DNA from: Malacoraja senta
Lineage: Eukaryota
Direction: 5' to 3'
Assembly: GCA_038087875.1 (NCBI GenBank)
Contig: CM075987.1
Span: 21,082,001 to 21,146,000, forward strand
Length of the DNA: 64,000 nucleotides
In this document: positions 6,041 to 63,575 of the stretch, piece by piece
Layout: each line of letters starts with the position of its first letter
How positions within the stretch are numbered: the first letter of the stretch is position 1
Notes under the pieces: model-generated
The model's database searches: none
Told to the model about the DNA's origin: nothing
What the model saw: only the letters and a program-made list of their open reading frames with translations
Program-made: the position numbers and the translations under genes

Positions 6041-6268
6041 CATAAAGTGCTGGAGTAACTCAGCGGATCAGGCATGCATCTGTGGAGGGAATGGACAGAC
6101 GATATTTCGGGTCGGGACTCATCTTCAGACTCTAGAAGGGTCCTGACCCGAAACGTCACCTATCTAATTCCTCCATAGATGCTGCCTCAATGCTGCCTGA
6201 CCCACTGAGTTACTCCTGCACTTTATGTTTTGCTTAAGATTCCTGGATCTACGGTTCCTTCAGTCTCC
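6041..6268. mobile_element. Head-to-head pair of Penelope-derived terminal units (fold-back) inside an old CR1 3' end
   Basis: cataaagtgctggagtaactcagc... (6041) is mirrored by ...ctgagttactcctgcactttatg (6227). The centre carries ttcgggtcgggactcatcttcag / gaagggtcctgacccgaaacgtc. Confidence 0.8.
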
Positions 6269-6493
6269 AAAACTTTTATTGGATGCAGACATAAAGGGTT
6301 TATGAAACTGAAGCAGAAGATGGAATGGAGACACAGATCAACCATGATCTAAATGAATGGTGGAACATGTTTGAGGCGTGAATGGTCTCTTCCCTCAGGC
6401 TCCATGTACTAAGGGTTCAATGTTGCTTCTGATTTCTATAAAAGACCCAGCAACATGAGAATCCTAATTAACCAAAACCTTTCCTTGTTGCAG

Positions 6494-6958
6494 AAGCTGA
6501 GCTGTGGCTACGTGCTATGTATGGTCCTGCTCTTTCTGGCAGTGTTACTGGCTGTGGCAGTAACAGGAACCCTCCTCTTCCTCAACCACTATCACCATGG
6601 CACGGAAGCACCACCTCTCATCAGCACCAACCAGGACAAGACACAGGCTCTGGTTACCATAGACCAGGCTGACAGCTCAAGGATTAGCATCTTTGTGGAC
6701 CCCAACTGCCCGGATTACAAGACAGACTTGGACCGCTTGGAAGGACTCCACTCATCGGTTCTCACTGCCGTGTCCAGCCATGGGGAGGAGATGGGGGCAA
6801 CTGAAGGGCAGGATATGGCGATGCAGGTCACAGTGGCAGATCAAGTGTCCAAGCTTTCGGCCCAACTGAGGCAGGATTATGAGGCCTTGAAACAGGGCCA
6901 AGGCAGCTTGAGACAGGAACTGAAATCACTCCAGTCAGAGCAAGGCAGGTTAATTGAG
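6494..6958 (+). CDS. FIBCD1: FIBCD1 coding exon (human exon 2 equivalent): transmembrane helix and coiled-coil stalk
   Basis: ttccttgttgcag acceptor; 465 nt, phase 0/0; KLSCGYVLCMVLLFLAVLLAVAVTGTLLFLNH...DPNCPD...LQSEQGRLIE; GAG|gtaagg donor. Matches the recalled FIBCD1 N-terminal half. Confidence 0.93.
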
Positions 6959-7729
6959 GTAAGGCAATGAGATCAACCCCCATTCCTGGATTGAAGCACT
7001 CGGAAGCTCAATTCACAGTTCACCCTAAAGCCTGTCAGGTCAGGCAAGTTTTTAACTCACTGACATTGCTATCTACCTTCTATGTCCATTGGCAGCTGTT
7101 CTTTGCAACATCACAGTATAGGATATCCCTTAAGTCGTTTGTATAACTTAAATGTGAAGAGGCTTGAAAATCTGGGGTTGTGATCATTTCAACTGAGAAG
7201 TTGTAAGGGTGACTTAAAATCAAGAAGGGTTTGACAGAGTAAAATGGAAACTTTTCTCACTGTCGCAATAGTTGGAGGCAAAACAGACTTAATAAATTTG
7301 GAAAAACACCCAGAGGGAAAATGTAGAGAATCAATTTTATGACCTGGAAAGCTCTCCCTGAAGGGAAATAAAATGCGGGGATGCAGTGGAAATGGATAAG
7401 GGAGAGAGGAATGCAGGCTGCCAGTCTGATGAACTACTTTCCGTCTCATATAATTCTCCAGTAATTTATATTATTCTCCACTGTGGCTTCTGTATTGACA
7501 TAATGTCATATTTCCACAGTAACAGGGGGCCAAATTCACAAAGCAGGATCAGGTTAATGTGACCAAATAATTGGTGATGATAGCAAGCAGTTTCATTGCT
7601 GGAATATTGGCTCATGAGTTGAAGGATCGTACTTGAATCATGGTTTTGGCATAGGAGAATTAGTGGCCTATTTTACGGTCTGTTGAAGACAATTACAGTA
7701 TGTCCCAGCGGATTAGCCCTCTTACCTTG

Positions 7730-7870
7730 GACTCAGAAGGCACACTGCAGAGACTTGAGCACAAATTCCGTCTGTCATTCCCTCTGCAGTACCAAAAGAG
7801 ATTTACGCTTTTGGATATTCTATCTTTTGGATGAGACGGTAAACCAAGGCCACACCTGCCCTCAGTAAAC
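7730..7870 (+). mobile_element. Old DeuSINE (SacSINE1/AmnSINE-like) fragment
   Basis: cactgcagagacttgagcacaaatt...ttttggatgagacggtaaaccaagg resembles the Deu core. Related copies lie near 5390-5480, 13985-14100 and 22130-22255. Confidence 0.55.
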
Positions 7871-9219: not shown

Positions 9220-9549
9220 GTAAGTGTGACTGGCACTCACATCATTGCTTTCCCTAACACCTTGCTCATCCAGCCCCATCTGGCAATCATTCTGCCGCAC
9301 TTTCGTGCAACTCATCCTACCCATGTTTCTCCAATTCTGAAGGAGAGAAAGGGATTAAGAAATGAAGATAATAATTGTATTTACATTGAGTCTTTATTAA
9401 CCTAAAGATATCCCAAAGCACTTTACTCCTAAAGCATTGTCGTCATTATTGCATGTAGAAAATGTGTAGCATGCAAATTATACCCAGCAGGAAATCACAA
9501 ACAACAATGTGCTGATAACCAAATAACTGTTTTAATGAGATAAAAGACA

Positions 9550-10325
9550 AACTGCGGATGGAAATTACCTGGTCAGGCAGCATCAGTAGAGGGAAATGGA
9601 CAGATGATGTTTCAGGTCTGGACTCTTCTTCAGAGTGATGGAATAGTGGGGAGATAGCTGCCATAAACAGGTGAGGAGAAAGGGTGGACCAAGAGGTGGC
9701 AAGTAATAGGTCGATCCAAGTAAGGAGAGATGATTGACAAATGAGTCAGAGAAGGGTAGAGATGGTAATCGAGGCTCCGGGACAACCCCTTCCCCTCACA
9801 GCTGCCTCCACTCTACTCCGTCAGTCTGAAGAAGGGTCCCAACTTGAAACATCATCTGTCCATTTCCTCGGCTGGTGCCTGACCCATTAATTTCCTCCAG
9901 TGGAGGACAAAAGGGTGCAAATGGTAGAATCTGGTATGGAAGGTGGGGCAGTAAAATGCAGTACCAGAGAGAGGGAGGGGGACGGGAGCGAGAGTGGGAC
10001 ACTGGAGTATGAGGGGTGGGTGATGAGTGGATGGAGGAGGAAAAATGATCTGGGTGATGGAGGTGGGGGAAGTGGAAAGAAAATTATGTGCAATGTTGTT
10101 GGGAAGCTGGGTAGATGAGGAGAGTGCACGTGTGTGTGTGGGGGGGAGAAGAATGTTCATGCAATTAGAATATGAGGCATTGTTCTTCCAGTTTGCATGT
10201 AGACTCACTCTTGCATTGAAGGAGGCCAGGGACAGATAGGCCAGCATGGGAAAGAGAGGGGGAATTAAAGTAGTTAGCATCCAGGAACGCTAGTTGGCCT
10301 TGATTGACATAGTGCAGGTGTTTGT
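9550..10325. mobile_element. Rearranged Penelope-like element fragments (terminal units in both orientations, GIY-YIG C-terminal remnant)
   Basis: Minus unit 9550-9635; plus unit cagtctgaagaagggtcccaacttgaaacatc at 9822-9853; purine-rich spacer; 10150-10325 is similar to 36420-36630. Confidence 0.65.
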
Positions 10326-16101: not shown

Positions 16102-16238
16102 ACCCTCGCCCCAAAGACTGCTATGACATCTTCTTGAGGGGTTACAAAGAGGATGGAATCTATTCTGTTTTTCCTACCCATTACCCTGGAGGATTTCAGG
16201 TCTCATGTGACATGACTGTGGCTGGAGGAGGCTGGACA
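16102..16238 (+). CDS. FIBCD1: FIBCD1 coding exon (exon 4 equivalent): start of the fibrinogen-related domain
   Basis: cccttgcag acceptor; 137 nt, phase 1/0; (D)PRPKDCYDIFLRGYKEDGIYSVFPTHYPGGFQVSCDMTVAGGGWT; ACA|gtaagt donor. Confidence 0.94.
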
Positions 16239-17446
16239 GTAAGTAGTCAATCTCCACCTGAAAAATGCTTTCTTCGTGAAATTCCATTTTATCTCCCAAA
16301 GCCCAAATCCAACACAATTTTATGTTGTAATCTTATTTCATTTGCCTTACACTATCCCACTTGCCTGCATTAGATCCGTATTTTTCCATGCCTTACCCAG
16401 TCCAAATGTCTCTTAAACGTGATTGTGTCTGACTCCCCATCCATTTAATCGTACCGATAATCCATTACATTTTAACTCCTAATCTCGTCCATACTATCTA
16501 TCAATCCGCTCAATTATATTTCCTGATCTATTTCATTCTGTCTCCAAAATTGCATTCCGTTCGCTACTTCTCACTCCTTTCATTCTCCATATTTTATTCA
16601 GTTCTCCATCTTCATTGCCTTCCATTTTATTTTCCCAATCTGATTATATGCTCACAGAACAAAATTAGATAATCACTTTTTTAAATGTTCTCATCCTTGT
16701 GCCAGTTATTTTCCACATTATTTTAGGCTCTATGATCCTGTCATCTAAATATATCCATTGAATTTCAGCAACTGATTCACAAAGTCCAGACAATTTGGTT
16801 CTATTTTGATTGTTATACTGATTGTTATTCTCTAGTTTTGTCCCGTCTTTGTTGGCCTGGATCTGTTTCAATTGGGAGCAATGAAATCTGTTGGAAACAG
16901 CTGCTTGAAATATCATATAGAATTCACAACCAACAAACAGGTCATATGGTCTACGCTGGTGCTAATTCTTCAAATGAACCTCTTTCAAGCATTGTACTTC
17001 TCAAAATGTCCTCCATACCTTTCTTCTTAATGCACTTGTGAAGCCTATTATTAAATAGATTCATAGTGTTCCCTTTAGCCATTTCTTCTGATAGATAGTT
17101 TCCATCCTGACCTTCAAATAAATATATTATTGATAAACTAATTTTGGTGGCCTTTACCTTTGGCCTCCGCCAAAGAACATCTTCGTTACTTCTACTCACC
17201 AAAAGGGATAAATCACAATATTGGTTGTTATTATACCAATAATCAAGAAGCATGGACTGCTGATGTTCAAATTCACATTTAAATTTGATGAATTTGGAAT
17301 AAAAAAGCTTGTGTCTGTAACAGTAGCCTAATGCCACTAGAATATTGTTTTGAATCCTTCTGATTCCTTTCAGGAAGCAAATCTACCGACTTGGAAATAT
17401 ACACCTTTACACAATCTGGCCTGGATGTAACTTAAAACTCTAAGTT

Positions 17447-18880: not shown

Positions 18881-19185
18881 ACTGTGCAAGGGAGCCAGCT
18901 GTGATTGTAGCTATAATCCTTACTATAAGCTCATCTGATTTATCTGTAAGGCTTCTTGCATTAAAGTAAATGCAATTAGGCCTGCCAGATCTTCCATGTT
19001 CTGAAACATCTCACTGTCTGCTCCATACATAATGCTTGGGGTGTCATGATGTCGAGCAATATTACCTGTTGCAACTATCAGACAGCGTTGAGTTGGTGTC
19101 CATTTCTTTTGACTTCATGGATTAACATTCTCCAACCTATTACTATCAAAATACTGAAGCGATTGTAGTGACTGAAGAGGCTGTA

Positions 19186-19285
19186 GAGTCTGAAGAAGGG
19201 TCACAACCCAAAACGTTACACTTTCCTTCTCTCCAGAAATGCTGCCTGTCCCGCTGAGTTACTCCAGCATTTTGTGTCTATCTTC
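19186..19285 (+). mobile_element. Penelope-derived terminal unit
   Basis: agagtctgaagaagggtcacaacccaaaacgttac...ccgctgagttactccagcattttgtgtcta. Confidence 0.8.
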
Positions 19286-19690
19286 GGCTCTAGTGATATG
19301 TCTGTTGTGACTTTGATCCCATTCTTCCATCTTATTTGTGGCTTTTCTCTTTCACTTTATTAGATATGAATGACTTCTCTATTCTATTATTTGCTTGAAT
19401 TTAAAAGGATGTCAGTTTTATTGGTGGAAGAGTGGTTTTATTTGTTCTCGGTGGGACTTTGAGCAATCATCCTTAACACCAAAATTTAACCCAGTGGATT
19501 CCTTTCCTTTTGCTCTTCTCCAAAATCCAACTTTCACATGCAGCCAATGCCTCCGGGAAAACTTGCCTTCTTTTGATTTCTATGACTTACAGGTGTATAT
19601 TTTTGGGAGAAGCAACATGCACAGATTGTCATGGGGAGAAACCCTATAAAATCACGAGAGAGTGGGTGCGAGTGTGCAGGAGAGGATGGG

Positions 19691-20269: not shown

Positions 20270-21885
20270 CAGTATGAGCCACAGTGAAACTCTGCACCAC
20301 TGCATTCCTTTTGTGCATTATCTGATTTTCATTGTCCTCCAATTGGTCCTTCATTGTCCTTCATTGTCCTCCAACTGGAGCAGTGCTTCTTAAACTATTT
20401 CAGTGTCATTCACCCTTGAGTCTTTATCACAAAATTTCATTCACCCTCGACTAAATGTTCTTATGTTTTTTGGTAATTTTCGTCTTATTCTCCCTTGTGT
20501 ATCATTTTATATATAATTTATTTTGTCACATGAGCAAAAAACATGAACTCATTTTTTAAGCGTTTATTTTATTCAACTTTTAGAACATCCAAAAAATATA
20601 TATGTAAAGAAAACTAGGAGTGAAAAAAAAAGTTTTTAATTACCACTGGAGTTGGAAAATCATTCCATTAGAATGATAAAAGACCATTCCAACGTCTAAA
20701 CACTGGGCTTCAGCCCCATCCTACCCTTTCGGGCTTTGATTACTGCAGTTTTTTTCCTGGAAAACTAGCTCAAAAAAACATGGAGTATGTGATTTAATAT
20801 ATTAGTATCCAACTAATATAACTTTCTATAACTCTCCCTGACGAAAGCTCACAATACCACCAAATATCAACTTTGGTAGCTAAATTGCTACACAAAGTAA
20901 AGTTACAGTTCAACAGTTGACTACGGCAATCCTCCGGTGTTGCCATTTTTAAATTTCCAGCTCCACTGCCATTAAAACCAATAAGAGCTTGCTAACCACT
21001 TTAATGCAATGGCTTTTTTTAAGCATAGAATAGAAAAATATATTTAAATATCTGAATAAATTAAGTCATTCACCCTTCATTAATAGGGCCATTAATGGAG
21101 TGACAAGTCTGGCAACCATTGTTGGGAGTTCATGGATACAGTGGTAACACATAAGGGTGCTGAATAACAATTTATTTCCTTTGTATAGAATTATGAGCTG
21201 TGTAACATGCTCAAGAAACTGAATGCCTCCTACATTTTCAGGGTAGTAGGCTCAAAGGATAGCTTAAAGGGTGTTGGCACCAATAGGTTTGATTCTCCCC
21301 TCAAATAAATCATACAGGGGAAGAAAGGGATTTTCCATTCTCCAACACTTCCCTGCTTCATAGGATGTAAAATGGAAAGCAATTTTGGTGAAATCCATTT
21401 ATTTTGCTTTTGCTTTTGCTTTCATCACATGTAGTTCAGCCCACAGCCTTTAAATTGTTATCATTATCTCATTGCAGAATCAAGCCTAAGCCTCAAGTTG
21501 TAGCCATGGCTTTACAGGACATCATTCATTGACTGAGCAAATCCAGTACTTCCAGACTTTCCTTCCACTTCAAAGCAGCAGCTGATTTAAGGCAGACTAA
21601 AAGATTAGTTTATCAAATTTGTGGTGGAAGTGTGAAGGAAAATCCATGGGGAATTATCTTCTTTTACACACAGTGACTTCTCTACATTTGTTCTTAGCTG
21701 TAAGAGGGTTTGAGATCTTTGCTGCATTTGAAGTTACGGATAGATGCATGATTCTTCAGCTCAGTCTTTGGAAACCAGCAATTCCCTCCCATCATACTGC
21801 AGTCTCAGTAGTTTTTGAAACAATGGATAGATTTTTGCCTCTGTATCCTGATCCAAACCCTGTTCACAGTATTAAGCAGTGGGGA

Positions 21886-21976
21886 TAGACACAAAATGCT
21901 GGAGTAACTCAGAAGGACAAGCAGCATCTCCGGAGTGAAGGAATGGATGACGTTTCGGGTCGAGACCCTTCTTCGC
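21886..21976 (-). mobile_element. Penelope-derived terminal unit
   Basis: tagacacaaaatgctggagtaactcag...gacgtttcgggtcgagacccttcttc. Confidence 0.8.
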
Positions 21977-22424
21977 AGATATCAGTCCTGAACTGAATGT
22001 TCCCCTTCCAGTTTTGTTTTTGAACTGAAATTAAGACTTAGAATAAACCATACTCTTTGTAATCCCCCACCCTTAATATCAAGATATTAATTTTACCATG
22101 GCTCACACTCTCATGTATCAAGTCTAAAGGACTCAGTTCTAAGTATTCATTTCACTTCAAGACATAATCCAGACTGACACTCCCAGTGGGCCAGAGGGAC
22201 TGCTGCACTGTCAGAGATGCTACCTTTTAGATAAGAGATTAAATCAAAGTACCACTTGTTCTCCCATTCTTCCTTCCTCTTGCCTGTTTATTATGCTGGT
22301 CATAACCATTTGTACACAATTTTTGCTGGGATGGGGGAAGGAGATGCATCATATTTATCTCTTCCGTCACTCCTAGACTGTTCAATTTTCACAAGTCTCC
22401 TTGCATCTTTTTGCACTTTTGCAG

Positions 22425-22521
22425 GTATTTCAGCGGCGGAAAGATGGATCAGTGGATTTTTTCAAAGGATGGGATGCCTACAAAGATGGATTTGGGAGGA
22501 TAACAGGAGAGCACTGGTTAG
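22425..22521 (+). CDS. FIBCD1: FIBCD1 coding exon (exon 5 equivalent): fibrinogen-related domain
   Basis: ttttgcag acceptor; 97 nt, phase 0/1; [33 protein letters not shown]|gtaaag donor. Confidence 0.94.
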
Positions 22522-24069
22522 GTAAAGAGACAAATATCTTATTTGTGACAGGGGACGATGCACAATCTCTTAAGCCTGCTTAGTCATTCTATAACAACAT
22601 GGCTGACCGCCATTGCAATTCAGTTTCACTGCCTTTGCTCATTTTTTTGATATCCAACAAAAAATAATTGGTCTCAAGTCTTGAAAGCTTCACTGGTATC
22701 GAGATTTTTGGTTGAGGAGAGTGTGGAATAGACTCTGTATGTGATGACTTATTTTCTTTCCAGTATCAAGGGGAGAGATCCGCCATTGATTTCTTGTTTT
22801 ATTTTAGGAAGTTTTCCCCTGTATGATTGCACCCATGCTGCTCTGTTTTAAAGACGATAATACTGCAACTCATTAGAAGAATTCGGCATGGAACATCTTC
22901 CTGCTTTTGAATCTTTGCCGACATTAAAAATGTGATATGGTGAGAGGCGACCTGTAGTCTGGCTCAGATTGAAGATTATTTGCCATAAAATGAGAAGTTG
23001 TTCTTCTATTTTGTGTCTGCTCTCTCAGGTGAAAGATCCCAAGGGCTCTAATGTCAATTGGAGCCTCAGTTTTATGTCTGAGTTTTATGATGTGCCTCCA
23101 GCAATGCAGGATTCCTTTAGAACCATACAGGAATATTAGCTGAGAGTGTGTACACCAAAAGTTGGCCTTTGACAACTCTTGGCAAAGCCGACTGAACATG
23201 AGGCCACACCATTAAAGATAATTGAGATCGTCAAGAAGGTGTCCAGAAGGGATTTCTGGAGAGGGGAAGTGAGAGATCAGAGAAACTTAGAAGGGATGGA
23301 ATAGGAGACAAGATCAAGACTGAAGCTATGATTAAAGACACCATTGAGATTTGGCGAGTTGGGTGCTGGGGAATGAATGGTGGATTGGGGTTAGCAATGA
23401 CATTTGGATTTGGAGAAAGAATAGTGACCTCGAGGAAGGTGTTCGGGAAGAGATTCGAGACTTGGTGACTGGTCATAAAAAAGTACTGATATGGAAAGCT
23501 GGGGTGATGTCACTGGTGGGAGATTTCAGATGTTTTTAAATGGAAGGCATGAAATGTTCCTATCGGCTTAGATGAACAAGTTCCAATTGATCAGATTCAT
23601 AGGGTCATGATGCTACAAGGAAAGCACAGAGCAGGTGGGTAATCATTATGCAAAAAACACACGGCCTACACCACAGGGGCTTCTCCTGGCCATCAGACTG
23701 AAGATCACCTTACGTGGCTCAGCTGATTCAGAGTACTATATTCTGTTAGAGCGGACATTGATAATTAATGCTTCCCATGCTGGCCAGCTGGCCTGAAATA
23801 CTTACCAAATAATTTATCCTGACAAAAGATTCCTTCCTTTTGCTTAAAATAAAACAGTTAATACAACTTGGAGTAAGATCAATTCATAAGATCAATCAAT
23901 TTTCATAACTACATGAAATAAATTTAGATTTTCAGCATCTGCATAGTTTTTCTTTGGCTCTCAAATCTTGCCCAAGAAAATGAACAACTAAATTAATTCA
24001 GAAGTTAATTTTGTATTGATCTTTCATGTGAAGAAAGGCTTGAAGCCTTTCATAATAGCAGGGCAACGC

Positions 24070-24133
24070 TTCTGGAAAACGCTTCCGATGTCTTTAATAG
24101 GCCGAATAAACGCAATAAAAATGATCTTTTTAC
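24070..24133 (+). mobile_element. 5'-truncated L1 ORF2 fragment running into the gap
   Basis: Encodes FWKTLPMSLIGRINAIKMIFL, identical in protein to 2329-2391. Confidence 0.9.
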
Positions 24134-24333
24134 NNNNNNNNNNNNNNNNNNNNNNNNNNNNNNNNNNNNNNNNNNNNNNNNNNNNNNNNNNNNNNNNNNN
24201 NNNNNNNNNNNNNNNNNNNNNNNNNNNNNNNNNNNNNNNNNNNNNNNNNNNNNNNNNNNNNNNNNNNNNNNNNNNNNNNNNNNNNNNNNNNNNNNNNNNN
24301 NNNNNNNNNNNNNNNNNNNNNNNNNNNNNNNNN
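24134..24333. other. Assembly gap (200 N)
   Basis: Run of exactly 200 N. A round number suggests a placeholder of unknown true size. Confidence 0.99.
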
Positions 24334-26708
24334 ATGTGTTTCTATATGTATGTACATGTATATGTTATTATGAAGCTAATGTGTAATGAATGCCCTGGTT
24401 ACACCACATCTGGAGTATTGTGTAAAATTTTGGGGACGGCACCTGGAATAGACATTCACACAATGTATCAGGCTCAAAGAATTGTATTTTGAGGACAGAC
24501 TGCGTAAACTAGGCTTGTATTTCCTTGAATTAAAAAAAGGTTAAGGATAATTTGACGAGTATTTAGAATTTTGAAATAACTTATTCAGGTCGATGGAGGA
24601 GAAACTTTTTTTTCTGTTGGTTGCAAATTATTGGTTACGTTTGAACAAGATCATTACAAGAGAAGTTAAAAATACATCACTCAAAGAGTTTTAAACAGAT
24701 ACATTTCTTTTACAGTAAAGAAATGCTGACTTAATAATCATTTCATAGTTAAGATTAATAGCAGTGGGTATAAAAGATTTGAAACTGAAATGGAGTTAGG
24801 ATCTACGTTAGTCATGATCTGACAATGAAATAATACGATCAGGGGGCTGAATCCCAATCTGACATTTCATATTTATTCTTTGTTTTTCCTCTACGGATGG
24901 TAGCTTACCTACTGATTACTTCCAGCGCTTTCTGTTTCATTCCTTTGATATGCAATTTTGTAAAATAACGTGCTATGGTGGAGGTGTTGAACTTCAGATT
25001 CATCCTTCAAAATGGCCTGGTTCCTTTTAATGTAACTTATCCAAAATTGAGGTTTAGTAACAGAAGCTCTCGGTTTGACCTAGAATGGAGAACTGAAATG
25101 GAAGGGGAAGACCAAGTGTACCAACAGGTAAACAGAGATCTTGGAAAGTAGAGAAAAACTCTGAGGGTTTTTTAGGCAATTTATCTATGACTTGCTCGAT
25201 GACATTCCAGGTTTCATTTGGTGAATCCTTTTCACTGGGTCTGGGGATTTGCATTCAAGTTTTCTCCAATGTAAAATTGGTCACTGAAAAGGATCAATTA
25301 GTTTTCATCCTTTTTATTTTGTTTACCTCTTTAAAATGATTGAAATGCCTCACCTTCATATCCCGCCTTTTCATGAATCATATGGAATCTGAATTGCATT
25401 TACTGTTAGGTCATTGCAAAGTATTTTGGGAAATATATCTTCTCATGAGCGACAAAGTAAATCAGGATGACACTGGGGCTTTGAATAGAGGGTAAGTTTT
25501 ATAGTGTTGCATCACAATGTGAGACTGACCATTCTATAAAGTTTGGAAGCTGGTAGAAATGCTGCCCTTGGTGCGCATTGCTCTGGGTTCAACACTGACC
25601 TCTGATGCTCCCTTAAAGGAATTTGCATGTTCTTTCTGTGAATGAATGGTTTTCCTTCCACATCCCCTTATTTGGGCACTGTAAAATGTATCTCCTGCAG
25701 GGAGAGTTCATGGAAATGTGGGAACCATTAAATGGCTAGTGTGAGATTAGTGTAAATGGGTGCTTGATGGTCAGTATGGACTTGATAGGCTGAAGGGCCT
25801 ATTTCCATGTTGAATGCTCTGACACAATGAAAAATTTAAAGAATCGTATGTCGTTAATGAAGAACCTGATATGGTAGATGAAGAGAACCCGGGGTCATGG
25901 TCTCATGATAAAGGGTCAGTATTCTTGATTAAAATTACTCTACTCAGATGGTTATGATTTTTTGTAATTATTTATCCCAGAAGATGGTGGATACTAAGTC
26001 AGAGAATGTGTAAAACTGTGATAGATAGATTATTCAATGCAACCAAAAAAACATCAGGAGATGGGAATCAGGGAATGAAAGTGCAACTGAAGTAGGAGAT
26101 CAACCATAATCATTTAGTGCAGCAAGCTCAATGGACAGAATAGCTTGGCATTCTTCCATTTCTTACATTACATTTATGTTATCGTGTTAGGCATAGTTCA
26201 AAAAAAGAGGGTTGGTCTGATCAATGCTGTAAGAATTGATGGGCTGGATACAGGGAAATTATTTTATGTAAGTCAATTCAAAGTCAAGTCAAGTATGAGG
26301 TGGACACAGCAAGGACATTTTGGACGAAACCTTGAAGCAACTCTCACAGAAGGCTTAAAGATATCTGAAATTATGAAGCCATAGGATGACAGAGGTCAAG
26401 TGAAACCATCAGTATTTGTTGGGTAAGAGAAAAGAGAGACATGAAGTAAAGGTAGATAAATTGTTGAGGCACTGAGCACTGTAAACTAATCAAATACACA
26501 GAAGGTTTGATAGGTCTAATGACCTGCTTCTATCTCAAATGCTCATGAATGTAATGCAACAAAAAAAAGAAGAAGAAAATGCCAGTAACTGGTGCATATA
26601 AAAGGAGTGAGATGTAATCAGTTACCAGATGCACAGATAACATTATGAATTGAGCAAAGTAGAAGAGCCCCAAGCCTTCATATCCATCTAAACCACAAAA
26701 AGGGCCAC

Positions 26709-26783
26709 ACTCTATGGCATTCTTCAGGAGATGCTGATGAAATAGAGTATTTCATCAGCATCTCCTGAAGAATGCCATAGAGT
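26709..26783. repeat. Perfect inverted repeat, 36-bp arms, 3-nt loop
   Basis: actctatggcattcttcaggagatgctgatgaaata-gag-tatttcatcagcatctcctgaagaatgccatagagt. Confidence 0.97.
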
Positions 26784-40616: not shown

Positions 40617-40756
40617 TGTTGTCTGTCCGTCTAGATTTCACATACCTCCAAAAGGCCTTGGGTTGCTCACCCTCAAGAATAGAAGAAACATGTTGTCTTT
40701 GAGCACTCCTAATAGCACGATCGACTATTATGGGACTAGTATCCCTGGGACATATT

Positions 40757-44854: not shown

Positions 44855-45075
44855 AACAAAAGTGCTGGAGGAACTCCGCGGGTCAGATAGCATTTGTGGA
44901 AATAATTCTATGGGCTACGTTTTGTGCCAGAACCCTTCTTTGGGCTGTGGAAGGTTCCCAACCTGAAATATCACCTGAACACTCCCACCACTAACACTGC
45001 CTGACCCACTGATTTTTTCTTTTCCCAAAACTTAGTGTTTTGATCACGATTCCAGCATCTACAGTTTCTTGTGTA
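44855..45075. mobile_element. Old fold-back pair of Penelope-derived units
   Basis: aaagtgctggaggaactccgcgggtcag...cccttctt then gaaggttcccaacctgaaatatcacc...ctgacccactga...ccagcatctacagtt. Confidence 0.65.
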
Positions 45076-51354: not shown

Positions 51355-51745
51355 ATAGAACTGCAGATGCTGGTTTAAATCGAAGGTAGACACCAAATGC
51401 TGGAGTAACTCAGCGGGACGGGCAGCATCTCTGGAGAGAAGGAATGGGTGATGTTTCCGGTCGAGACCCTTCAGACTGATGTCAGGGGAGTGGGTGGGGG
51501 ACAAAGATAGATGTCAGGGGAGTGGGCGGGACAAAGATAGAATGTAGTTGGAGACAGTAAGACTGGTGGGAGAACTGGGAAGAGGGAGGGGATGGAGAGA
51601 GGGGGAAAGCACGGGCTATTTGATGTTAGCACGGGGTATTTGAAGTCAATGTTCATACAGCTGGGGTGTAAGCTATCCCTCTCTCTCCATCCTTCCCAGT
51701 TCTCCCACCAGTCTTACTGTTTCCAACTACATTCTATCTTTGTTT
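51355..51745 (-). mobile_element. Penelope-like 3' end with inverted duplication of its UTR
   Basis: Unit 51355-51480 and purine-rich UTR (with a ~31-bp internal repeat). 51675-51743 is the reverse complement of 51531-51604. Confidence 0.8.
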
Positions 51746-52399
51746 TATTTTATCATTGACCATAAGATTGCATATCCAGCTGATCCACTTGTCTGAGGTG
51801 TACCATCTTGCTGTGCTCACCACGAATTAGGCTTCATTAAACGCTGGACGTGCTTCCTGTTGGAATCAGATTAGGACCAACTTGAAATGCACAAGTATGG
51901 AGTAAAACAGTTGGAAACAATCCATTGTGATAAATTCAAGGTTGTCATATAACTGGCACACTCAAGGATTGTGCTGAACGATTTGTTCAATTCTGTAAAC
52001 AACAGTTATTTTGTTACTGAGGCAATAATCTAACTGAGCTCATTCCAACTTTGGTAGTGGCGTGTTTGCCTGGATAATTGTTTGATGAACAATAATGTAA
52101 TATAAATTTGTTCAGTGAGGTTAAAACTGCATGGTTTTCCATAACATAGAAATACTTTTAGTAATCTTGGTAACCATTTAGCCCAACATATTCATGCCAG
52201 GCACAAAAAAAAGTTTGGAATAATATCAATTCGCAACTCTTTTGGTCTTTCAGCTCATTCCTTGTGTGTGCCAGTTTTGTGATGACCTTGAATTTATTAC
52301 AATGAATTATTTAGAACCTTTTTTCCACACTGGTTGGTTATGGCACATTAAGTGCGCCTCCCTGCACTTTTTAAATGTAATGAACCTTGGGGTTGATGA

Positions 52400-55300
52400 T
52401 CTCTTGCTTGTAGGGGATAGTATTATTCGGGGGGTAGATAAGGTTCTCTGTGGCCAGCAGAACATGTCCCGAAGGCTGTGTTGCCTACCCGGTGCTAGGG
52501 TTAAGGATATCTCTGCGATGCTGGAGAGAAATTTGCAGGGGGAGGGGGAGGATCCAGTGGTCGTGGTCCATGTTGGGACCAATGACATAGGAAGGACGAG
52601 GAAGGAGGATCTGCTGAAGGAGTTTGAGCAGTTAGGGAATAAATTAAAAAGCAGAACCTCGAGGGTACTGATCTCCGGATTGCTACCTGAGCCACGGGCC
52701 AAATCGGCGAGAGTACGTAAAATTAAAAAGCTGAATGCGTGGCTAAAAGACTGGTGTGGGAATAATGGGTTTGGTTTCTTGGGCCACTGGCACCAGTACT
52801 GGGACAGGGGGGATCTGTTCTGTAAGGACGGACTTCACCTGAACGGTGCTGGGACTGGGGTCCTGGCAAATCATATAACTAGGGCAGTAGAGAGGTGTTT
52901 AAACTAAGTAGCGGGGGGAGGTATCAAGGGTGGTAATAACGGCAGGGGTAGAGGAAATAGAGCAGGGTATCAGTGGGGAAACGGAAAATCAAAATGTGAC
53001 AGGAGGATTCAGAATGTGTGAAGATAAAGCTCTAGATGTAAAAGAGGCAAAAACAGAAAGGAAGGGTAGTAAAAATCATCTGAAAGTGCTGTATCTAAAT
53101 GCACGGAGTATTCGAAATAAGATAAATGAATTAACGGTGCAATTAAGTGTATATAGTTATGATATCGTGGCCATTACGGAGACATGGCTGCAAGGGGATC
53201 AGGACTGGGAGTTAAATATAGAGGGGTACTCGACAATTAGAAAAAATAGACAGAAAAGAAAGGGAGGAGGGGTGGCCCTTTTAATAAGGGAGGGAATAAC
53301 GGCAATAGAGAGGAAGGATATTGCGTTGAAGGATCAGGATAGTGAAACAGCTTGGGTACAGATAGAGAATAACAAGGGGAAAAAAACACTGGTGGGTGTA
53401 ATTTATAGACCTCCAAATAGCTGTGACGCTGTTAGTCAGAACATAAATCTGCAAATAGTTGACGCATGTAAAAAGGGAACTGCTGTAATCATGGGGGACT
53501 TCAATTTTCATATTAATTGGGCAAACCAAACTGGGCAGGGTAAACTAGAAGAAGAGTTTATAGAATGTATTAGAGACGGGTTCCTAGAACAGTATGTCAC
53601 AGAACCGACAAGGGGGGAGGCAATCTTGGATCTGGTCCTGTGTAATGAAGTAGGATTAATTAAAAATGTCATAGTTAGGGACTCGTTGGGAACAAGTGAC
53701 CACAATATGGTCGAATTCCATATTCAAATAGAAGGGGAGCAGGTTGAAACTCAGGCTAGGGTACTTAGTCTAAATAAGGGGGATTATGAAGGTATGAGGA
53801 CTGAGCTGATCAAAGTTGACTGGGATAGCAGACTCAAGAATAAGACGGTACATGAGCAGTGGTGTACGTTTAAGGATCTACTGTATAACCTTCAAGAAAA
53901 ATTTATTCCTATGAAGAAAAAAAGGGGTAAGGGTAAGAACAGGCAGCCATGGCTCAGTAAAACTATAAAGGATAGTATTCGGCTGAAGGCAAGGGCATAT
54001 AAGGTAGCCAGAGATAGTGGGAGGGTAGAGGATGGGAAGCATTTAAAGGTCAGCAAAAAATAACTAAGAGATTAATTTAAGACGGGGAAAATAGACTATG
54101 AAAGGAATTTAGCGAACACATAAAAACTAATAGTAAGAGTTTTTATAGCTATATAAAAAGAAAAAGGGTGGCTAAGGTGAACGTTGGTCCATTGGAGGGT
54201 GAGACTGGAGAGTTGTTGGTGGGGAACATGGAAATGGCAAAGGCATTAAACGAGTATTTTGTATCAGTCTTCACCATAGAAGACACAAAAATATTCCAAC
54301 GCTGGATAAACAGGGGGAGGTAGGAATGGAGCTAATACTATTAAGATCACCAAGGAGGTGGTATTAGGGAAATTAATGGGACTGAAGGAGGATAAATCCC
54401 CTGGGCCTGATGGATTACATCCAAGGGTTTTGAGGGAGATAGCGGGTGGGGATTGTGGATGCATTGGTGATAATTTTCAAAACTCCCTGGAGGCAGGAAC
54501 GGTCCCAGTGGATTGGAAATTGGCCAATGTAACACCTATATTTAAAAAGGAAGTAAACAGAAGGCGGGTAACTATAGACCGGTTAGTCTAACATCGGTGG
54601 TGGGTAAAATGTTAGAGACAATTATTAAAGAAACACTAACGGGGCACTTGGATAGACATGACTTCATCGGACAGAACCAGCATGGTTTTGTGAAGGGGAA
54701 GTCCTGTTTAACAAATCTGCTTTGAATTCTTTGAGAAGTAACAACCCGGGTGGATAAAGGGGAACCGGTGGATGTGGTATACTTGGACTTCCAAAAGGCT
54801 TTTGACAAGGTGCCACATAAGAGACTATTGCTAAAAATAAAAAATTATGGGATTGGGGGTAATATATTAGCATGGGTAGAGGATTGGCTAACAAATAGGA
54901 AGCAGAGAGTGGGGATAATGGTTCATATTCGGGATGGCAACCGGTAACTAGCGGGGTTCCGCAAGGGTCGGTGCTGGGACCCCAGTTGTTCACAATTTAT
55001 ATAAATGATTTGGAGGAGGGAACCAAGTGTAATATATCAAAATTTGCGGACGATACAAAAATGGGAAGAAAAGTAGGGGATGAGGAGGATAGGAAGAGTC
55101 TGCAAAAGGATATAGATAAGCTAGGTGAGTGGGCAACAACTTGGCAGATGAAATTTAATACTAATAAATGTGAAGTCATACACTTTGGGAAAAAAAATGA
55201 TAGGGCAAGTTATTTTCTAAATGAGGAGGAGCTGCGCTGTAATGCAACGCAAAGGGATCTAGGGGTAGTAGTACATGAATCACTAAAAGTTAGTATGCAG

Positions 55301-56213
55301 GTGCAGCAAGCTATCAGGAAGGCCAATGGAGTTTTGGCCTTTATTGCTAGGGGGATTGAGTATAAAAACACGGAGGTCTTGCTGCAGCTGTACACAGTAT
55401 TAGTGAGACCACATTTGGAATACTGTGTACAGTTCTGGGGTCCATACTTAAGAAAGGATGTACTGGCCCTAGAGGCAGTGCAGCGAAGGTTTACAAGATT
55501 ATATTCCTGCAATGAGGGGATTGACATATGAGGAAAGGTTAAGTAGGCTGGAACTCTACTCTTTGGAGTTTAGAAGAATGAGAGGCGATCTCATTGAAAC
55601 ATATAAGATCGTGAGGGGCCTTGATCGGGTGGATGCACCGAGGATGTTCCCAATGATCGGGGAAACTAGAACCAGGGGACATAGTTGTAGAATAAGGGGG
55701 GGCTCTTTTAAAACTGAGATGAGGAAGAACTTCTTCACCCAGAGGGTGGTTCATTTATGGAATTCACTGCCCCAGGGAGCAGTGGAAGCAGAAACATTAA
55801 ATATATTTAAGTCTAAAATAGATGGTTTTTTAGCTGCCAAGGGGATAAGGGGCTACGGGGAGAGGGCAGGGATATGGACCTAGGTAAGGTTAGTATAGTA
55901 AGACCTGAGTGATCTCCTGGACAAGTGTCGATCGCCTGGATTGGGGTCGGAGAGGAATTCCCGGATTTTTTCCCCGAATTGGACCTGGGTTTTTATCCGT
56001 TTTTTGCCTCCCCCAGGAGATCACTCGGTTCTTGGGGTGGAGAGGGGTGATAGCGCTATAAAGGGGAGGGTAGTGTCTTGTGTCTACTGTTTGTGGGTGG
56101 GGGTGTTTGTTTGTTTGGTGTTCAGCCATGAGCGAATGGCGGTGCGGGCTCGATGGACCTGGTGGTCTGCTCTCGCACCTACTTTCTATGATTCTATGAT
56201 TCTATGATTCTAT
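52400..56213 (+). mobile_element. Long young CR1 LINE: ORF1 SGNH esterase, ORF2 APE-RT (frameshifted), extended 3' UTR, (TTCTATGA)n tail
   Basis: ORF1 GDSIIR, CLPGA, HVGTND, DGLHLN (stop 52907). ORF2 NARSI, ITETWL, YRPP, GDFN, SDH, PGPDG, FQKAFD, PQGSVLGP, FADDTK (stop 55883). Tail 56183-56213. Confidence 0.93.
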
Positions 56214-57351
56214 AGATCTGAGATGACTGATGACGTCAGTATGGATCCACACACTGAACCAGAGATGAGGACAGGAGATCTCAGTGGAGCAACTGAGTGA
56301 AAAGTGTGGTAGGTGGTGTGTTTCGTCCACCACTTGTGCTGGGCCTTTCTGTGCATCTGATGAAGCAACTTGATGTTTTCAGTACTATCGTGCACCCACT
56401 TTCATTTTGTGTTGTCTTGTGCCAGGAATCCACACAAGTCAGTGGGGATGATTCAAATTTTCAAGGATAAAAATGATTTGGAGATTCTTGACCAAAAATC
56501 AAAGGGCTGGAGGAACTGAGTGGGTTAGCAGCATGTATGGGAGGAATAGACCGATGACATTTTGGGTCGGGAACCTTCTTCAGGCTGTGCTCCTAGAAAC
56601 CAGTCCTTATCACGATTTCCATAACATGAAGCTGCATCATCGGTGCAAGTGTCAAGAAACATGAATTGAAGAAAATAGTTTTTTTCTGATACGTGTTGAT
56701 ACTAACCCGAGGTTACCACTGGCTTAAACCCTTCCTCATGAGACTAGCAAACCTTCTGTACAAATGTATTGGTCCCAGCACTGTTGAACTGTGAAACATG
56801 CAGGCCCCACCTCCCAAGGACTGGTCTTGGTGGATTGAGAATCCGAGGCCCTCTCCATAGGTTCTCATTCATTAGCACCAATCTCTATTTTATCCTTAGG
56901 TAAATGGTAGTGGTAGATTTCAAGCTGCTTTTTCATCAATTTCTTGCTTCTTGTATAGAAGGATTTTATTCTCTTTCTGCCTCTTTGTACCATTATGCAG
57001 CACAACCTCTTAGGCTGTGGGCCGAGCATCAAAAATGTGTCTAGAATCCAGTTTTCGTGACCCAAGTCACCAAACTACATGACATTTTCCACAGATTTAG
57101 ATGAAATATAAGTGAGAAGGATGTCATAACTCGTCATTGCCAAAAGCTGCACATTAATTAATTAAACTAATTAGAAAATAAGATCGGGAGAGTAAGCGCC
57201 ATCTAGTGGCCAATGCCCATATTACACCATGGGCAGCCTATTTCCGTGTTGCAGTCCATTTAAACTATATATGATTATACCTATATATATATATATATGT
57301 AGTTCATGTACTTCATGAATGAATGAGTGAATGAACGAGTGAGTGAGTGAA

Positions 57352-58150
57352 TTGTTGTTGTTGTATTCAATTTATTGTCATCTCATTTTAGAGACAACGA
57401 AATGGATTTTCATTACAGTCAAGTAACATAAAAATAAATAATAAATAAATAAACATTTTTTTTTTAAAGCACAAACACAGAAGGTCCACACACAACATGA
57501 CTGTTGGGCGTTGGGAGCTCCGCGAAACACAGCTCCGCGCTGTCGGTGCAGCAAGCCCAGCACTCCGGAGCTCCCAACGCGGGTGGCGCTGACCAACATC
57601 GCGGAGTCCTGCGACTCCACCCGGCTCGGCCTGCGGACTCTGGTGGCTGATCTGGAGGTCCGGGCCGCTGAGGATGTTCTCCGTCGGGGTTCGGCGTCGG
57701 GGTTCCACCGTTCCCGGCGAGAGGGCCTGGACCTCCAGATCAGTCACCTCCCACCGGAGTCCGCAGGCCGAGCCGGGTGGAGTCGCAGGACTCCGCGATG
57801 TTGGTCAGCGCCGCCCGCGTTGGGAGCTCCGCGAACCACTGCTCCGCGCTGTCGGTGCAGCTGGCCCAGCACCCCGGAGCTCCAAACGGCGATCCCCGGT
57901 AAGGCATCGCCCGACCCGCGATGTTTCCAACGTTGTGCCGCTGCTGCCGGAGCGGGGGGGAGGGTGAGGACGCGACTTGAATAATAGTCGCATCCTCTCA
58001 AGGAAGCGACTGAAGGACGGTATCCCCCTTATCGTACCCTCTTCCCCCACATAAAAACATTTTTTTTTAAACCACAAAAAACGTTCTTCAAACATAACAA
58101 AAACATAACAAAAAGATACCGGACTGAAGACGGAGGCAGCTAGCAACAGG
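57352..58150 (-). mobile_element. GC/CpG-rich SINE-like retroposon nested in the TIR element
   Basis: Minus 3' end atttcgttgtctctaaaatgagatgacaataaa + (aac)n. The body contains internal direct and inverted duplications. Flanked on both sides by tgaa/tgag repeats. Confidence 0.7.
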
Positions 58151-60455: not shown

Positions 60456-60559
60456 GCTGAGTGTGTTTGGGGGGTGGTTAGTGTGTGTGATGCCGCAGCC
60501 CCCCCCCCTCCCGCAAACGCGCGTTGGGAAAACAGCCCACCAACAGTCTCTCTGTCTTT

Positions 60560-60775
60560 AAGAAGGAACTGCAGATGCTGGAAAATCAAAGGTACACAAA
60601 AAAAAGCTGTATAACCTCAGCGGGTGCAGCAGCATGTATGGCTCGACGGAAATAGGCAACGTTTCAGGAAAAAAAAATCTGAGATTGGCTTCGTTCCAGA
60701 ACGTTGCCTATTTCAGTCGCGCCATACATGCTGCTGCACACGCTGTGGTTTCTCCAGCTTTTTTTTGTATACCAG
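60560..60775. mobile_element. Fold-back pair of Penelope-type units inside the Helitron
   Basis: cagcgggtgcagcagcatgtatggctcgacggaaataggcaacgtt is mirrored by aacgttgcctatttcagtcgcgccatacatgctgctgcacacgctg. Confidence 0.75.
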
Positions 60776-63234
60776 TCTCTCTGTCTCTCCACTCTCTCTC
60801 TCTCTCTCTCTGCCCTTCTCTCTTCACAGCCCGCGGCTCGACTCATGCACTCCCGCTCCAACCCCCCCTTCACCTTTCTCCCCCATCCTCTCCTTCCTCT
60901 CTACACCCCTCTCCTCTCTCCCCCTCCTCTCTCCCCACCTTTCTCTCCCCCTCTCCTCCATCCCTCTTCAAATTTTTAACATTAAATTTTGTCTCTCTGC
61001 CCCCCCCCCTCTAGACACACCTGAGAGGTGAGGACTATTCATCAGTGGATAGGGTGGAGATGGGATAAAAGAAGCAAATAAAAAAATTAATGTAATATCA
61101 AACGGGTGTGATGAGTGTGTGTGTTTGTGGGTGCAGGATTCCGTGCTTTGGAGGAAAGGGGGTGGTTAGTGTGACGCCACAGCCCCTCCCCCCCCCCCCC
61201 CCCCCCCCCCGCAAACGCACGTTCGGTGTCCAGACCCAACGGGTCTGCACTTGGTCTAGTATACTATTAAAAGTCTTGACTTTGTCTGTCTGATCTCAGG
61301 AGCTATGCCAAAACGTGTACATGGTAGCATGAACATTTTTGCATGATCAGCTTTTTCCCGTGGTCGTTAGTATCGTTTCTTCACACTTGATGTTATAGTT
61401 GGCTGTCAGTTGGCTGCTCTGTCAGATAACTTGGATGTTAGTTTATTGTATGCTGTGGTTGCAAGATAGTCAATTTTAATGTACCTCTCTTTCCAAACAG
61501 CTTTTGACAACAAATATCCTTTTGCCTCAGTGAAATATAAATATTCACATCCACAACCCACATGAGAAACCTCCAATCTAAATTATGGACTTGTGCATTA
61601 TTTATGAATAATATTGCAGCATTATTCAGCGTAGCTGGTTACTGGAATGCTTCTTGCCCTAATGCCATCGGGAGCCTGTAATTTGCTAAAAACCAAAGGA
61701 TGTTCGTGTTACTCATGCTTCCCTGAACAAATTTGTCGTTTTTAAATATTTACAATGCTAGTGAGTCACAGTGCCTGAAATATAAATCCAACTCTATAAA
61801 AATTTGCTTTATCTATGTGGACTTAATCTTCTTTAACTATTCTCTACTTAAGTAATTCCCAATGTAACGGTTATCCCTTTAGATGGAAATTAAATCCTAT
61901 GTCATGTGAAATGTTAAATTGTGTTCCGTGACACAATCTACATTGAATTCAAAATATAATGCATACTATGCAACAAGTATCTAAGCAGTGCCTTGAGAAT
62001 GAAATATTTAAAGAAGAGTTTTATTGCACTTTCACATTTATACAGATAATTCTGACTTGAAAGTATGGAGAACATGCCACAGAGATGTTAAAAATTCAAT
62101 TGGATTGTTTTTAGTTGTTTTTCAAATCTGAGAAGGGAGATGAGGAAATTTAGAAAATAAATTCCTTTCTTTATGGTCTTGGAATATGATGGTGCAATCA
62201 CCAATGGAGGAGAAATTAAATGCACAGATAAGCCTGAATTACAGGAGCCTGGAATCTGAGGTCATCAAACTGGAAACTATTGAGGCCATCCAGTGATGAT
62301 GATGAGGATGACTGATATACCAACATTAAGCGTCAGGAGGCTGTTGAGGTTGGAAATAGTCATTGTGGTGGAGATGTACAGTTGGTACAGAGTTCATCTT
62401 GGAGCTGACGTGATATCAAGGTTGCAAATAGCTTGGTTCAATTTCGAGTGGTTGCAAGGAAAAGGTATGCTTTTGGAAGTTTGATGTATGCCATAGGTTT
62501 CTGAGGTTGCTCTCAGTCTTCCTCGTGTTTTGAACGTGGAAATTGCTGCTCATTTTGTTCATGTTGTTGGAAAAGCCATCTAATAATTTGCTGTGTGTCG
62601 AGGTGAAAAGAGGTGGCAGTGAAGTTGAGCAGGCTCAGTGTCCATGTACATATCAATGCAGTGGTTTCTGCTAGGAAGAAGTTCTGTTCTCAGCTAAGTG
62701 ACAGCCTCATGCATCACAAAAAAGCTTACGGCATTTGTATCAAGGATATTTTGGCTCAATGTTTTCAGTGTGCTTAAAAGGTACTAAATGCTCATAACAG
62801 AATGTACTGTTGTAAAAAAGAGTCAACATACTTTCTGGAATCCAGTCAATTGTTACTGAAAGTTATTAAATTATATAAACTTTTATTTTAGAGGATAAAC
62901 CTGGCTGATTGGGCATTGGGTTAGGCTGACCTGTGCTTTAGGATCTTGCATTAATGTTGTTTTCCATTGTAGCAATACGCAGATTAACATTAACCAATAT
63001 GAGAACTCTGTGAAATATGAATGGTAGAAATATAATTTTGCACCCGTCTGTGGTTAGATTTTTGTATTTAGAACAATCTAACCTGTTTGTTTTTGTTTCT
63101 GGGAAGGCCTTGAGAGAGTAAGAGAGAGATTTATTAAAAGGATTTAGCAAGCAATTCCTAATGCATAAATCATCCTGCAATAAATTTATTGCTGTCAAAG
63201 GCTAAGAAGATTGGAAATATTCAACTGGTCAGTC

Positions 63235-63575
63235 ACATCTGAAGAAAGGTCATCGTGTGGAAATATTAACTGTTTCTCTCTCTATACATACTGCCCAACC
63301 TGATGTGTATTTAAAGACATTTGAGTTCTTACTTGCCCTTGATACATATTTGCCATTCAGTCTCTCAAATCTTTATTCCCATTCTGTTCAATTGGAATGA
63401 TTTGTATCTCCGTTCTATTTTCCTGTCTTGGCTCCAAATCTAGAATTTTCAATTAACCCACTGTCCTGAACCTCTTCCGTTAGCAGAGGGAGGCTACATG
63501 CAAACGGGAAGAACAGCGCCTCATATTCCACTTGGGTAGCTTACAATTCAACAGTATGAACATTGAATTCTACAG
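63235..63575 (+). mobile_element. Degraded Penelope fragments (terminal unit and GIY-YIG C-terminus)
   Basis: ctgaagaaaggtc...gaaatatt at 63239; gaacagcgcctcatattccacttgggtagcttaca...atgaacattgaattc (EQRLIFHLGSL...MNIEF) at 63510-63570. Confidence 0.65.

Follow-up and report, generated by a model that had tools for sequence, protein, structure and literature searches.

FIBCD1, ABL1 and the dispersed repeat

The window, that is, the whole 64-kb stretch of Malacoraja senta DNA analysed here, contains a fibrinogen-C exon of FIBCD1 (16104–16245, + strand), a further FIBCD1 exon (~22425–22525) and the coding part of ABL1 exon 1b (42131–42262, + strand). The preliminary description had placed copies of a short repeat in introns of these two genes. 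Both genes are indeed present. An assembly gap occupies positions 24134–24333, and the copies at 24.8k–38.2k sit between this gap and ABL1 exon 1b. Because motif scans of the window recovered no later FIBCD1 exon, the intron placement of these copies, including those at 36k and 38k, is unsupported.

A profile was built from six seed copies and searched against the window and the reversed window. With the six seeds included, 20 matches had E<0.01, and the total rose to 26 when E-values up to 10 were allowed; the reversed window yielded three (best E 2.3; none at E<0.01). Similarly, a 28-nt core pattern with up to three mismatches was matched six times in the window and never in 100 shuffles. 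The repeat family constitutes 4.3% of the window, in keeping with its earlier description as one of the commonest repeats of the genome. Profile and pattern searches located copies at every position listed earlier, and the consensus given then is the majority of the 16 copies that we aligned, with C or T as the loop base. The family was matched by 111,000–189,000 contigs per run in three runs from three organisms, a figure that is not a copy number; depth of run contigs was taken neither as copy number nor as expression, and run X15 was flagged as probably DNA. The exact 28-nt pattern had no matches in metagenome and viral contigs, nor did blastn return any in plasmids. Four viral loci retrieved with a degenerate pattern were set aside as unrelated, the best E-value of the family profile being only 0.41. 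Viral locus L003 displayed weak Rfam hammerhead matches, but at positions other than that of the degenerate-pattern match.

Four diverging head-to-head pairs of copies are present in the window; the profile search detected no tandem pairs in the 64 kb, and no two hammerhead-core copies on the same strand lie closer than ~1.9 kb. At 6k, the left arm of a head-to-head pair is a stub at 6040–6133 (−; core 6101–6128) and the right arm a stub at 6121–6238 (+; core 6130–6157) with a broken CUGA box. The copy at 9543–9639 (−; core 9606–9633), in which the boxes are kept and stem II and the palindrome are broken, diverges from that at 9819–9900 (+; core 9826–9853), which is sense to FIBCD1. Decayed stubs form a head-to-head pair at 44853–45067, and head-to-head stubs without an intact 5' box occupy 60566–60768; an optional 3' extension, present in four window copies, accompanies the right arm of the former (45052–45067) and the left arm of the latter. 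Further stubs were found at 19180–19287 (+; core 19190–19217, G12>A), 21881–21987 (−; core 21949–21976, C3 and U4 changed), 38048–38157 (−; core 38118–38145), 56494–56588 (−; core 56556–56583, G12>A) and, decayed, at 63238–63308 (+; core bases kept, stem II broken), along with a heavily decayed copy at 24843–24938 (+; E 0.006) and tail-only pieces at 4552–4608 (−; with optional extension), 32588–32637 (−), 44249–44286 (+) and 44530–44567 (−). The 38k stub lies between 14-nt direct repeats (13 of 14 positions matching), which may represent either a target-site duplication or a terminal palindrome. Close to the 19k copy, a repeat matching at 8 of 9 positions fell within the null range, and its interpretation as a target-site duplication was rejected.

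Relationship to Penelope-like elements

The hammerhead at 36k had been described as directly following a GIY-YIG C-terminus. The association was confirmed, but the hammerhead is situated ~210 nt behind the C-terminus, past a 3' UTR. All parts of this locus are on the minus strand. A GIY-YIG endonuclease of Penelope type is represented by its 65 C-terminal codons (36439–36633; 134 homology matches), which are followed, after a frameshift, by the terminal GMNIDFSNF codons (36408–36434) and by a pyrimidine-rich 3' UTR/pseudo-LTR, which runs from the ORF end to the hammerhead (36200–36407) and is partly common to the 51k copy. Next come the best preserved minimal core (36172–36199), differing only by C3>U where the family majority has C, and the 3' tail (36094–36171) past the predicted cut site (after 36172), the usual 3' ends of the family being at ~36110–36120. 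Immediately upstream of C3, a pyrimidine tract followed by CAG was considered as a possible splice acceptor.

The 65-aa piece itself was recognised neither by Pfam nor by a word-index protein search. Its 134 relatives are up to 73% identical to it, and it aligns immediately after the YCIxCxxCxxxYIGET motif; Pfam GIY-YIG was matched at E≤0.01 by eight of the 20 relatives scanned, one of those eight passing the curated cut-off. Relative P0007 contains a weak RVT_1 match plus GIY-YIG; the reverse transcriptase is absent from the 5'-truncated window copies, and no full-length element was seen in the window. Relatives of the ORF end were present at one locus in metagenomes and at none in viral or genome contigs.

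ORF-end remnants were identified near two more copies. A second, decayed GIY-YIG C-terminal remnant is located at 10168–10323 (−; tblastn E 6.5e-10) and an ORF-end remnant near the 63k stub at 63461–63571 (+). The longer remnant at 51358–51749 (−; core ~51448–51474 with a 3-nt deletion) comprises an optional 3' extension (51358–51373), a segment spanning the UTR to the ORF end (51533–51674) and an inverted UTR piece (51672–51749). The latter, at 51.7k, adds to the Penelope-type hallmarks of 5' truncation, inverted 5' copies and optional tail; in PMC8557442 and PMC11167929, head-to-head pairs and an optional extension of 30–40 nt are described as known features of Penelope-like elements (PLEs). 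Thus, the GIY-YIG ORF-end link, the head-to-head pairs and the optional tail support the Penelope origin that had been suggested for the repeat.

The hammerhead core and its decay

In order along the RNA, the majority of the 16 aligned copies reads a CUGAnGA box, one extra base, G10.1-C11.1, GAAA, a palindromic C15.2-G16.2 and UH. All invariant boxes (C3-U4-G5-A6-N7-G8-A9, G12-A13-A14-A15.1, U16.1 and H17) are included, and the majority therefore carries the whole core published for minimal hammerheads (PMC4209133), bearing out the earlier proposal that the consensus of the family contains a type I hammerhead of the minimal kind. C3 is C at 93–95% of the depth in other contigs in four runs; the extra base between A9 and 10.1 is A in 12/16 copies and U in 3/16, and the 15.2-16.2 palindrome, which lacks a loop III, is C-G in 7/16 and U-A in 3/16. 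A stem II is present as claimed, although it is predicted to consist of 4 bp with a 4-nt loop and not of 5 bp with a 2-nt loop. Helix I has 2 bp, followed by an A.C mismatch in which A2.3 (13/16) is opposite C1.3 (14/16); no stable longer helix I common to the copies was found. The published descriptor sets a minimum of 3 bp for helix I, and the majority and all window copies therefore fail it. No Rfam hammerhead was matched at E≤10 in either the whole window or 36100–36260. A variant with a 2-bp helix I has, however, been accepted in D. virilis (PMC4209133), so the failed descriptor points to a variant with a short helix and not to another kind of RNA. The chance of the majority core arising at random is ~2e-5 per 100 nt (23 matches in 292 Mb of simulated DNA).

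Conservation was 0.875 in the core and 0.759 in the tail (p 0.023; distal tail 0.80), a modest edge; across subfamilies the core is at least as well conserved as the tail. Covariation in the stems, earlier proposed as a check, was not detected among the window copies, where pair counts revealed no two-sided changes and nothing above shuffles and RNAalifold produced no consensus structure. Swapped helix pairs became apparent against one distant element only, L005, which has the same core behind its ORF and a 5-bp helix I with swapped pairs. When the 3' non-coding regions of L005 and the repeat were compared, the best local match coincided exactly with this core; an equally good match arose in 23 of 1000 shuffles. 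The change from CG to TA at 15.2-16.2 was rejected as covariation, as double CpG decay produces the same change.

All 11 invariant core bases are kept in 5/16 copies. Both core boxes are retained in the three copies named in the preliminary description and also in 38118–38145(−) and 63239(+). The core bases, stem II and a Watson-Crick 15.2-16.2 pair (ACGU palindrome) do not occur together in any of the 16. In copy 6101–6128(−) the 11 bases are intact, stem II has an A.C mismatch and 15.2-16.2 is U-A; in 9826–9853(+) the boxes are intact, stem II has two G.U pairs and the palindrome is lost (C.A); in 38118–38145(−) the core bases are intact, stem II is mostly G.U and 15.2-16.2 is U.G. C11.1-G12 is intact in 4/16 copies and 15.2-16.2 in 7/16. 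Most changes at CpG sites yield TG, CA or TA, and this decay strikes the catalytic G12.

Motifs of this kind, scattered as single copies and also arranged in opposite-strand pairs, have been described previously (Cervera and de la Peña 2014, PMC4209133). The repeat resembles the minimal hammerheads of metazoan PLE pseudo-LTRs (pLTRs) in that paper in its CUGAnGA box with extra base, G10.1-C11.1, GAAA, palindromic 15.2-16.2 without loop III and UH triplet, in its place behind an RT/GIY-YIG ORF, and in being found mostly as single copies with some opposite-strand pairs. The fish examples (Fig. S3 of PMC4209133) have the same boxes and the same CGUC end, whereas their helix II is 5–7 bp as against 4 bp in the repeat; the 2 bp of helix I, under the descriptor minimum of 3, are shared with the D. 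virilis motif. One supplement file of that paper that was searched contained no shark, skate or chimaera examples. The green anole Poseidon element PAc (Frangieh et al. 2024, PMC11167929) similarly has a pLTR hammerhead, AT-rich flanks, an optional tail and 3' ends that lie tens of bases past the cut site; in contrast, no full ORF is seen for the repeat, and only one copy has a start codon in the hammerhead. Non-LTR retrozymes, reported in one chondrichthyan genome, are likewise non-coding, pLTR-derived and equipped with a type I hammerhead (PMC7229834; bioRxiv 10.64898/2026.07.22.740005), but they form tandem arrays of 50–970-nt units, usually with canonical motifs. Copies of the repeat occur singly or in inverted orientation, with few tandem joints, unlike the tandem array with a hammerhead per unit by which retrozymes are recognised. 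Canonical Rfam hammerheads (clan CL00010) share the core boxes and differ in possessing a helix III stem-loop and a loop-loop contact. No description of the family was found in the literature (Repbase and Dfam being outside the scope), and the chondrichthyan families of the 2026 bioRxiv preprint may include it. With thousands of single-copy PLE minimal hammerheads in print since 2014, the finding mainly adds one very abundant family, which counts based on the standard descriptor would miss owing to its 2-bp helix I.

Origin of the stubs and their activity

We consider it likely, with a probability of about 0.85, that an abundant retroelement of Penelope/Poseidon type gave rise to the units, which would be its 3' ends (pieces of the pseudo-LTR) after 5' truncation and passengers rather than working ribozymes. 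Judging from the literature, cleavage after GUC in the master element would depend on the pairing of two copies by way of the ACGU palindrome, and it would be weak and probably require the element's own protein. On RNA that has not been cut, the reverse transcriptase would prime 55–95 nt beyond the cut site in the downstream direction and then deposit short cDNAs. Once inserted, the stubs would decay, fastest at the two CpGs overlapping C11.1-G12 and the palindrome, and would persist as passengers, both between genes and within introns of the host.

Most stubs start at the 5' edge of the ribozyme rather than at the cut site, and family-type sequence stops within ~12 nt of C3 in nine of the 13 copies with a 5' box. 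Such clustering bears on the role of the hammerhead in PLE transposition. Tentatively, the ~95-nt stub could be a defined product and not a random truncation, with uncut RNA as the template, reverse transcription starting 55–95 nt past the cut site and stopping or switching strand at the hammerhead 5' edge. This would account for the whole core inside the stubs, for head-to-head joints in or beside the CUGA box and for the very high copy number of a 2-bp helix I motif invisible to the descriptor. If so, the family would record, naturally and on a large scale, the points relative to the ribozyme at which PLE reverse transcription starts and ends.

The hammerhead-like consensus might instead be due to chance or be a catalytically dead relic of an element that no longer uses cleavage. 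We regard this as unlikely. Consistent with it are the 2-bp helix I with its conserved A.C mismatch, the lack of covariation in window copies, the uncut core in the stubs and the observation that anole PLE insertion in vitro is unaffected by hammerhead mutants (PMC11167929). However, the low probability of a chance match, the same core in the same place in the distant PLE L005, and core conservation that at least equals that of the tail make descent from a real hammerhead clear, leaving only present activity in question.

It is also unlikely that the ~95-nt unit propagates itself as a non-autonomous element, SINE- or retrozyme-like and mobilised as such by the PLE protein, rather than being a by-product of the full element. 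The narrow unit length and the clustered 5' ends would fit such an element, and non-LTR retrozymes do originate from pLTRs (bioRxiv 2026.07.22.740005), but longer copies grade into the 3' UTR and ORF and no internal promoter was seen. Position 36198, adjoining the 5' box, was the most numerous loose end among those listed in each of four runs, a peak that also points to a discrete unit but arises partly because the reference copy has two private mismatches at 36199–36200. Head-to-tail joints (36198→36110) do exist, in 43, 48, 63 and 12 contigs of the four runs, yet are very rare, representing a tiny share of the matching contigs.

There is very little to recommend the proposal of working ribozyme cassettes in FIBCD1/ABL1 pre-mRNA: five of the 16 copies do retain the invariant bases, 9826–9853(+) satisfies the descriptor once a 2-bp stem I is allowed, and domesticated intronic hammerheads of amniotes are described in PMC6155905, but no copy is complete or passes the descriptor as published, that at 9826 lacks the palindrome required for dimers, and no same-strand partner is nearby. 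Eight of nine Xenopus dimers failed to cut. Published minimal hammerhead monomers show no cleavage and dimers only weak cleavage (PMC4209133), and the anole motif requires protein (PMC11167929). The decayed window copies probably do not cut host-gene RNA. Several belong to head-to-head pairs that form a single long hairpin, the pair at 6040–6238 doing so with −118.7 kcal/mol (z −15.6), and for the majority sequence an off-pathway duplex (−20.8) is far more stable than the catalytic dimer fold (−6.1).

The repeat family and its Penelope-like origin

A profile HMM built from six seed copies of the ~95-nt repeat returned 26 matches in the window at E≤10, of which 20, including the seeds, had E<0.01; the reversed-window control yielded three matches, the best with an E value of 2.3. 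A 28-nt hammerhead pattern (≤3 mismatches) was matched six times in the window and in none of 100 shuffles. All copies listed in the preliminary description were found, and pieces of the family account for ~4.3% of the window. Sixteen of the 20 copies with E<0.01 extend into the hammerhead region and make up the alignment; the other four, tail-only pieces, were excluded from core counts. The sequence at 36000–36700 was found in part, in many cases at a small share, in 20 of 22 listed runs, the 20 covering nine coded organisms as well as a metagenome and a run that carries no label. Contigs aligned to 36060–36660 in four runs (110,996, 189,491, 182,725 and 19,939; these figures are not copy number) show that the repeat is greatly abundant.

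Translation of 36439–36633 (minus strand), within the reference copy, gives 65 aa. This piece was missed by Pfam and by a word-index protein search; a full HMMER search retrieved 134 relatives, the best sharing 73% identity, in which the segment comes after a YCIxCxxCxxxYIGET motif. Eight of 20 relatives scanned matched the GIY-YIG domain of Pfam at E≤0.01, only one of them above the curated cut-off, and one relative (P0007) additionally displayed a weak reverse transcriptase (RT) match. Further ORF-end remnants lie at 10168–10323, 51533–51674 and 63461–63571. Diverging pairs occupy 6040–6238, 9543–9900, 44853–45043 and 60588–60768, and four window copies possess an optional 3' extension; both features agree with the accounts of inverted copies and a tail in Penelope-like elements (PLEs) given in the available portions of PMC8557442 and PMC11167929. 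Taken together, the GIY-YIG relatives, remnants, pairs and extension uphold the previously proposed tie to a PLE and show that the repeat is a PLE 3' end. The GIY-YIG end is also borne by four predicted host proteins (P0002, P0019, P0021 and P0074, with DUF4518, a GPCR, a 3CxxC zinc ribbon and NYAP), most likely as PLE fragments caught in gene models. No description of this stub family was encountered in the literature searched; repeat databases and preprint supplements may contain one.

A minimal hammerhead in the majority sequence

The majority sequence of the 16 aligned copies contains CUGAAGA, an extra A, a 4-bp stem II with a tetraloop, closed by G10.1–C11.1, then GAAA, C–G and UC. These are the traits of minimal hammerheads given in the accessible text of PMC4209133, the supplement of which, as far as available, includes fish motifs with identical boxes. 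The family thus carries the minimal hammerhead consensus recognised earlier, with both boxes, stem II and the palindrome. Our own descriptor matched simulated DNA 23 times in 292 Mb, or ~1.6e-5 per 100-nt repeat. Position C3 is U in the reference copy and C in 93–95% of depth in each of four runs. A distant PLE relative (L005; 47% amino acid identity) has the same core 114 nt past its stop codon. When its 3' region was compared with that of the window family, no local match scored better than this core, and 23 of 1000 shuffles were equally good. Its helix I is 5 bp long, with A–U and C–G where the window family has U–A and G–C; it is a single sequence, and its own stem II contains a mismatch. 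Among the 16 copies, identity to the majority was 0.875 in non-CpG core columns versus 0.759 in the tail (p 0.023, columns not being independent) and 0.80 in the distal tail, a modest advantage for the core.

The family departs from the published PLE minimal hammerhead descriptor solely in helix I, as does the Drosophila virilis PLE motif in the part of PMC4209133 available. The motif descends from PLE minimal hammerheads, and the putative ribozyme would work like them.

Decay of the copies and proposed origin of the stubs

The window copies are decayed, and several results speak against their being active. All invariant core bases are kept in 5/16, two of which also have a paired stem II and none a Watson–Crick palindrome. 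C11.1–G12 is intact in four copies and 15.2–16.2 in seven, the changes being mostly to TG, CA or TA, a pattern pointing to methyl-CpG decay that would have reached the general base. Helix I has only 2 bp before an A.C mismatch (A in 13/16, C in 14/16). Because the published descriptor asks for 3 bp, neither the majority nor any copy passes it; when it was relaxed to 2 bp, two copies passed. There was no Rfam hammerhead match, and no covariation was seen among the window copies. For the majority, the predicted catalytic dimer (−6.1 kcal/mol) compares with an off-pathway duplex at −20.8 kcal/mol. The pair at 6 kb is predicted to fold as one hairpin, and the closest same-strand copies with a core are ~1.9 kb apart. 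According to the sections available of the respective sources, minimal hammerhead monomers are uncut and dimers cut weakly (PMC4209133), cutting by the anole motif requires protein and insertion in vitro needs no cleavage (PMC11167929), and one of nine Xenopus dimers was cut (bioRxiv 10.64898/2026.07.22.740005).

A retrozyme array was rejected as the identity of the repeat, head-to-tail joints being rare (12–63 contigs per run in four runs). We propose that the motif of the master PLE, if used at all, would act as a protein-assisted dimer, and that the stubs may be cDNA products of uncut RNA, since the whole core is present and none of the four tail-only pieces begins at the cut site. More than ~12 nt upstream of C3, family sequence is undetectable in 9 of 13 copies with the 5' box, where subfamily-specific UTRs could mask homology. 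The same upstream edge of C3 is the most numerous loose contig end among those shown in each of four runs, a peak inflated by two private mismatches of the reference copy. The repeat flanking the 38-kb copy has 13/14 matches (null maximum of 8 in 42 cross-pairs). Directly before C3, longer copies display a splice-acceptor-like pyrimidine tract and CAG (36200–36215, 51475–51490 and 9810–9825); the D. virilis PLE intron ends at helix I in the text available of PMC4209133.

Host genes and neighbouring features

The window is vertebrate DNA, perhaps from a cartilaginous fish. Sequence matches place FIBCD1 exons on the plus strand, and a segment near 6490–6960, devoid of a Pfam match, we take to be another; FIBCD1 exon 1 was not found in the window. 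ABL1 exon 1b lies at 42131–42262 (plus strand) and an assembly gap at 24134–24333. Given these positions, the earlier assignment of the copies to FIBCD1 and ABL1 introns stands for those at 9.5–22 kb, which lie between FIBCD1 exons, and most simply for those beyond 42.3 kb, in ABL1 intron 1; FIBCD1 intron 1 is the probable location of the 6-kb pair. The assignment is not supported for the copies at 24.8–38.2 kb, as the gap lies upstream and motif scans of the window detected no later FIBCD1 exon. Across 22525–42131, no FIBCD1 sequence apparently follows the second fibrinogen-domain exon, which is close to the start of the gap, and ABL1 exon 1b comes next on the same strand. A misjoin, missing exons or a rearrangement relative to what we assume to be the human order is possible.

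Near-perfect palindromes of ~80 nt are present at 41254–41338 and 26704–26787; the former scores 52.6 with Rfam mir-30 (gathering score 50.2), probably merely owing to its long hairpin. GC-rich repeat DNA at 57566–57831 contains an inverted repeat whose 81-nt arms are 98% complementary. A viral contig (L003) contains four hammerhead-like motifs within 1.5 kb (736–814, 1501–1529, 1811–1897 and 2190–2229), three with weak Rfam hammerhead matches under gathering scores; these motifs are unrelated to the window repeat. A near full-length, frameshifted CR1-type LINE occupies 52224–55880 (plus strand), encoding a GDSL esterase ORF1, AP endonuclease and RT. LINE RT remnants lie at 36976–37900 (plus strand) and 38170–39890 (minus strand), the latter with the 38-kb stub at its 3' end.
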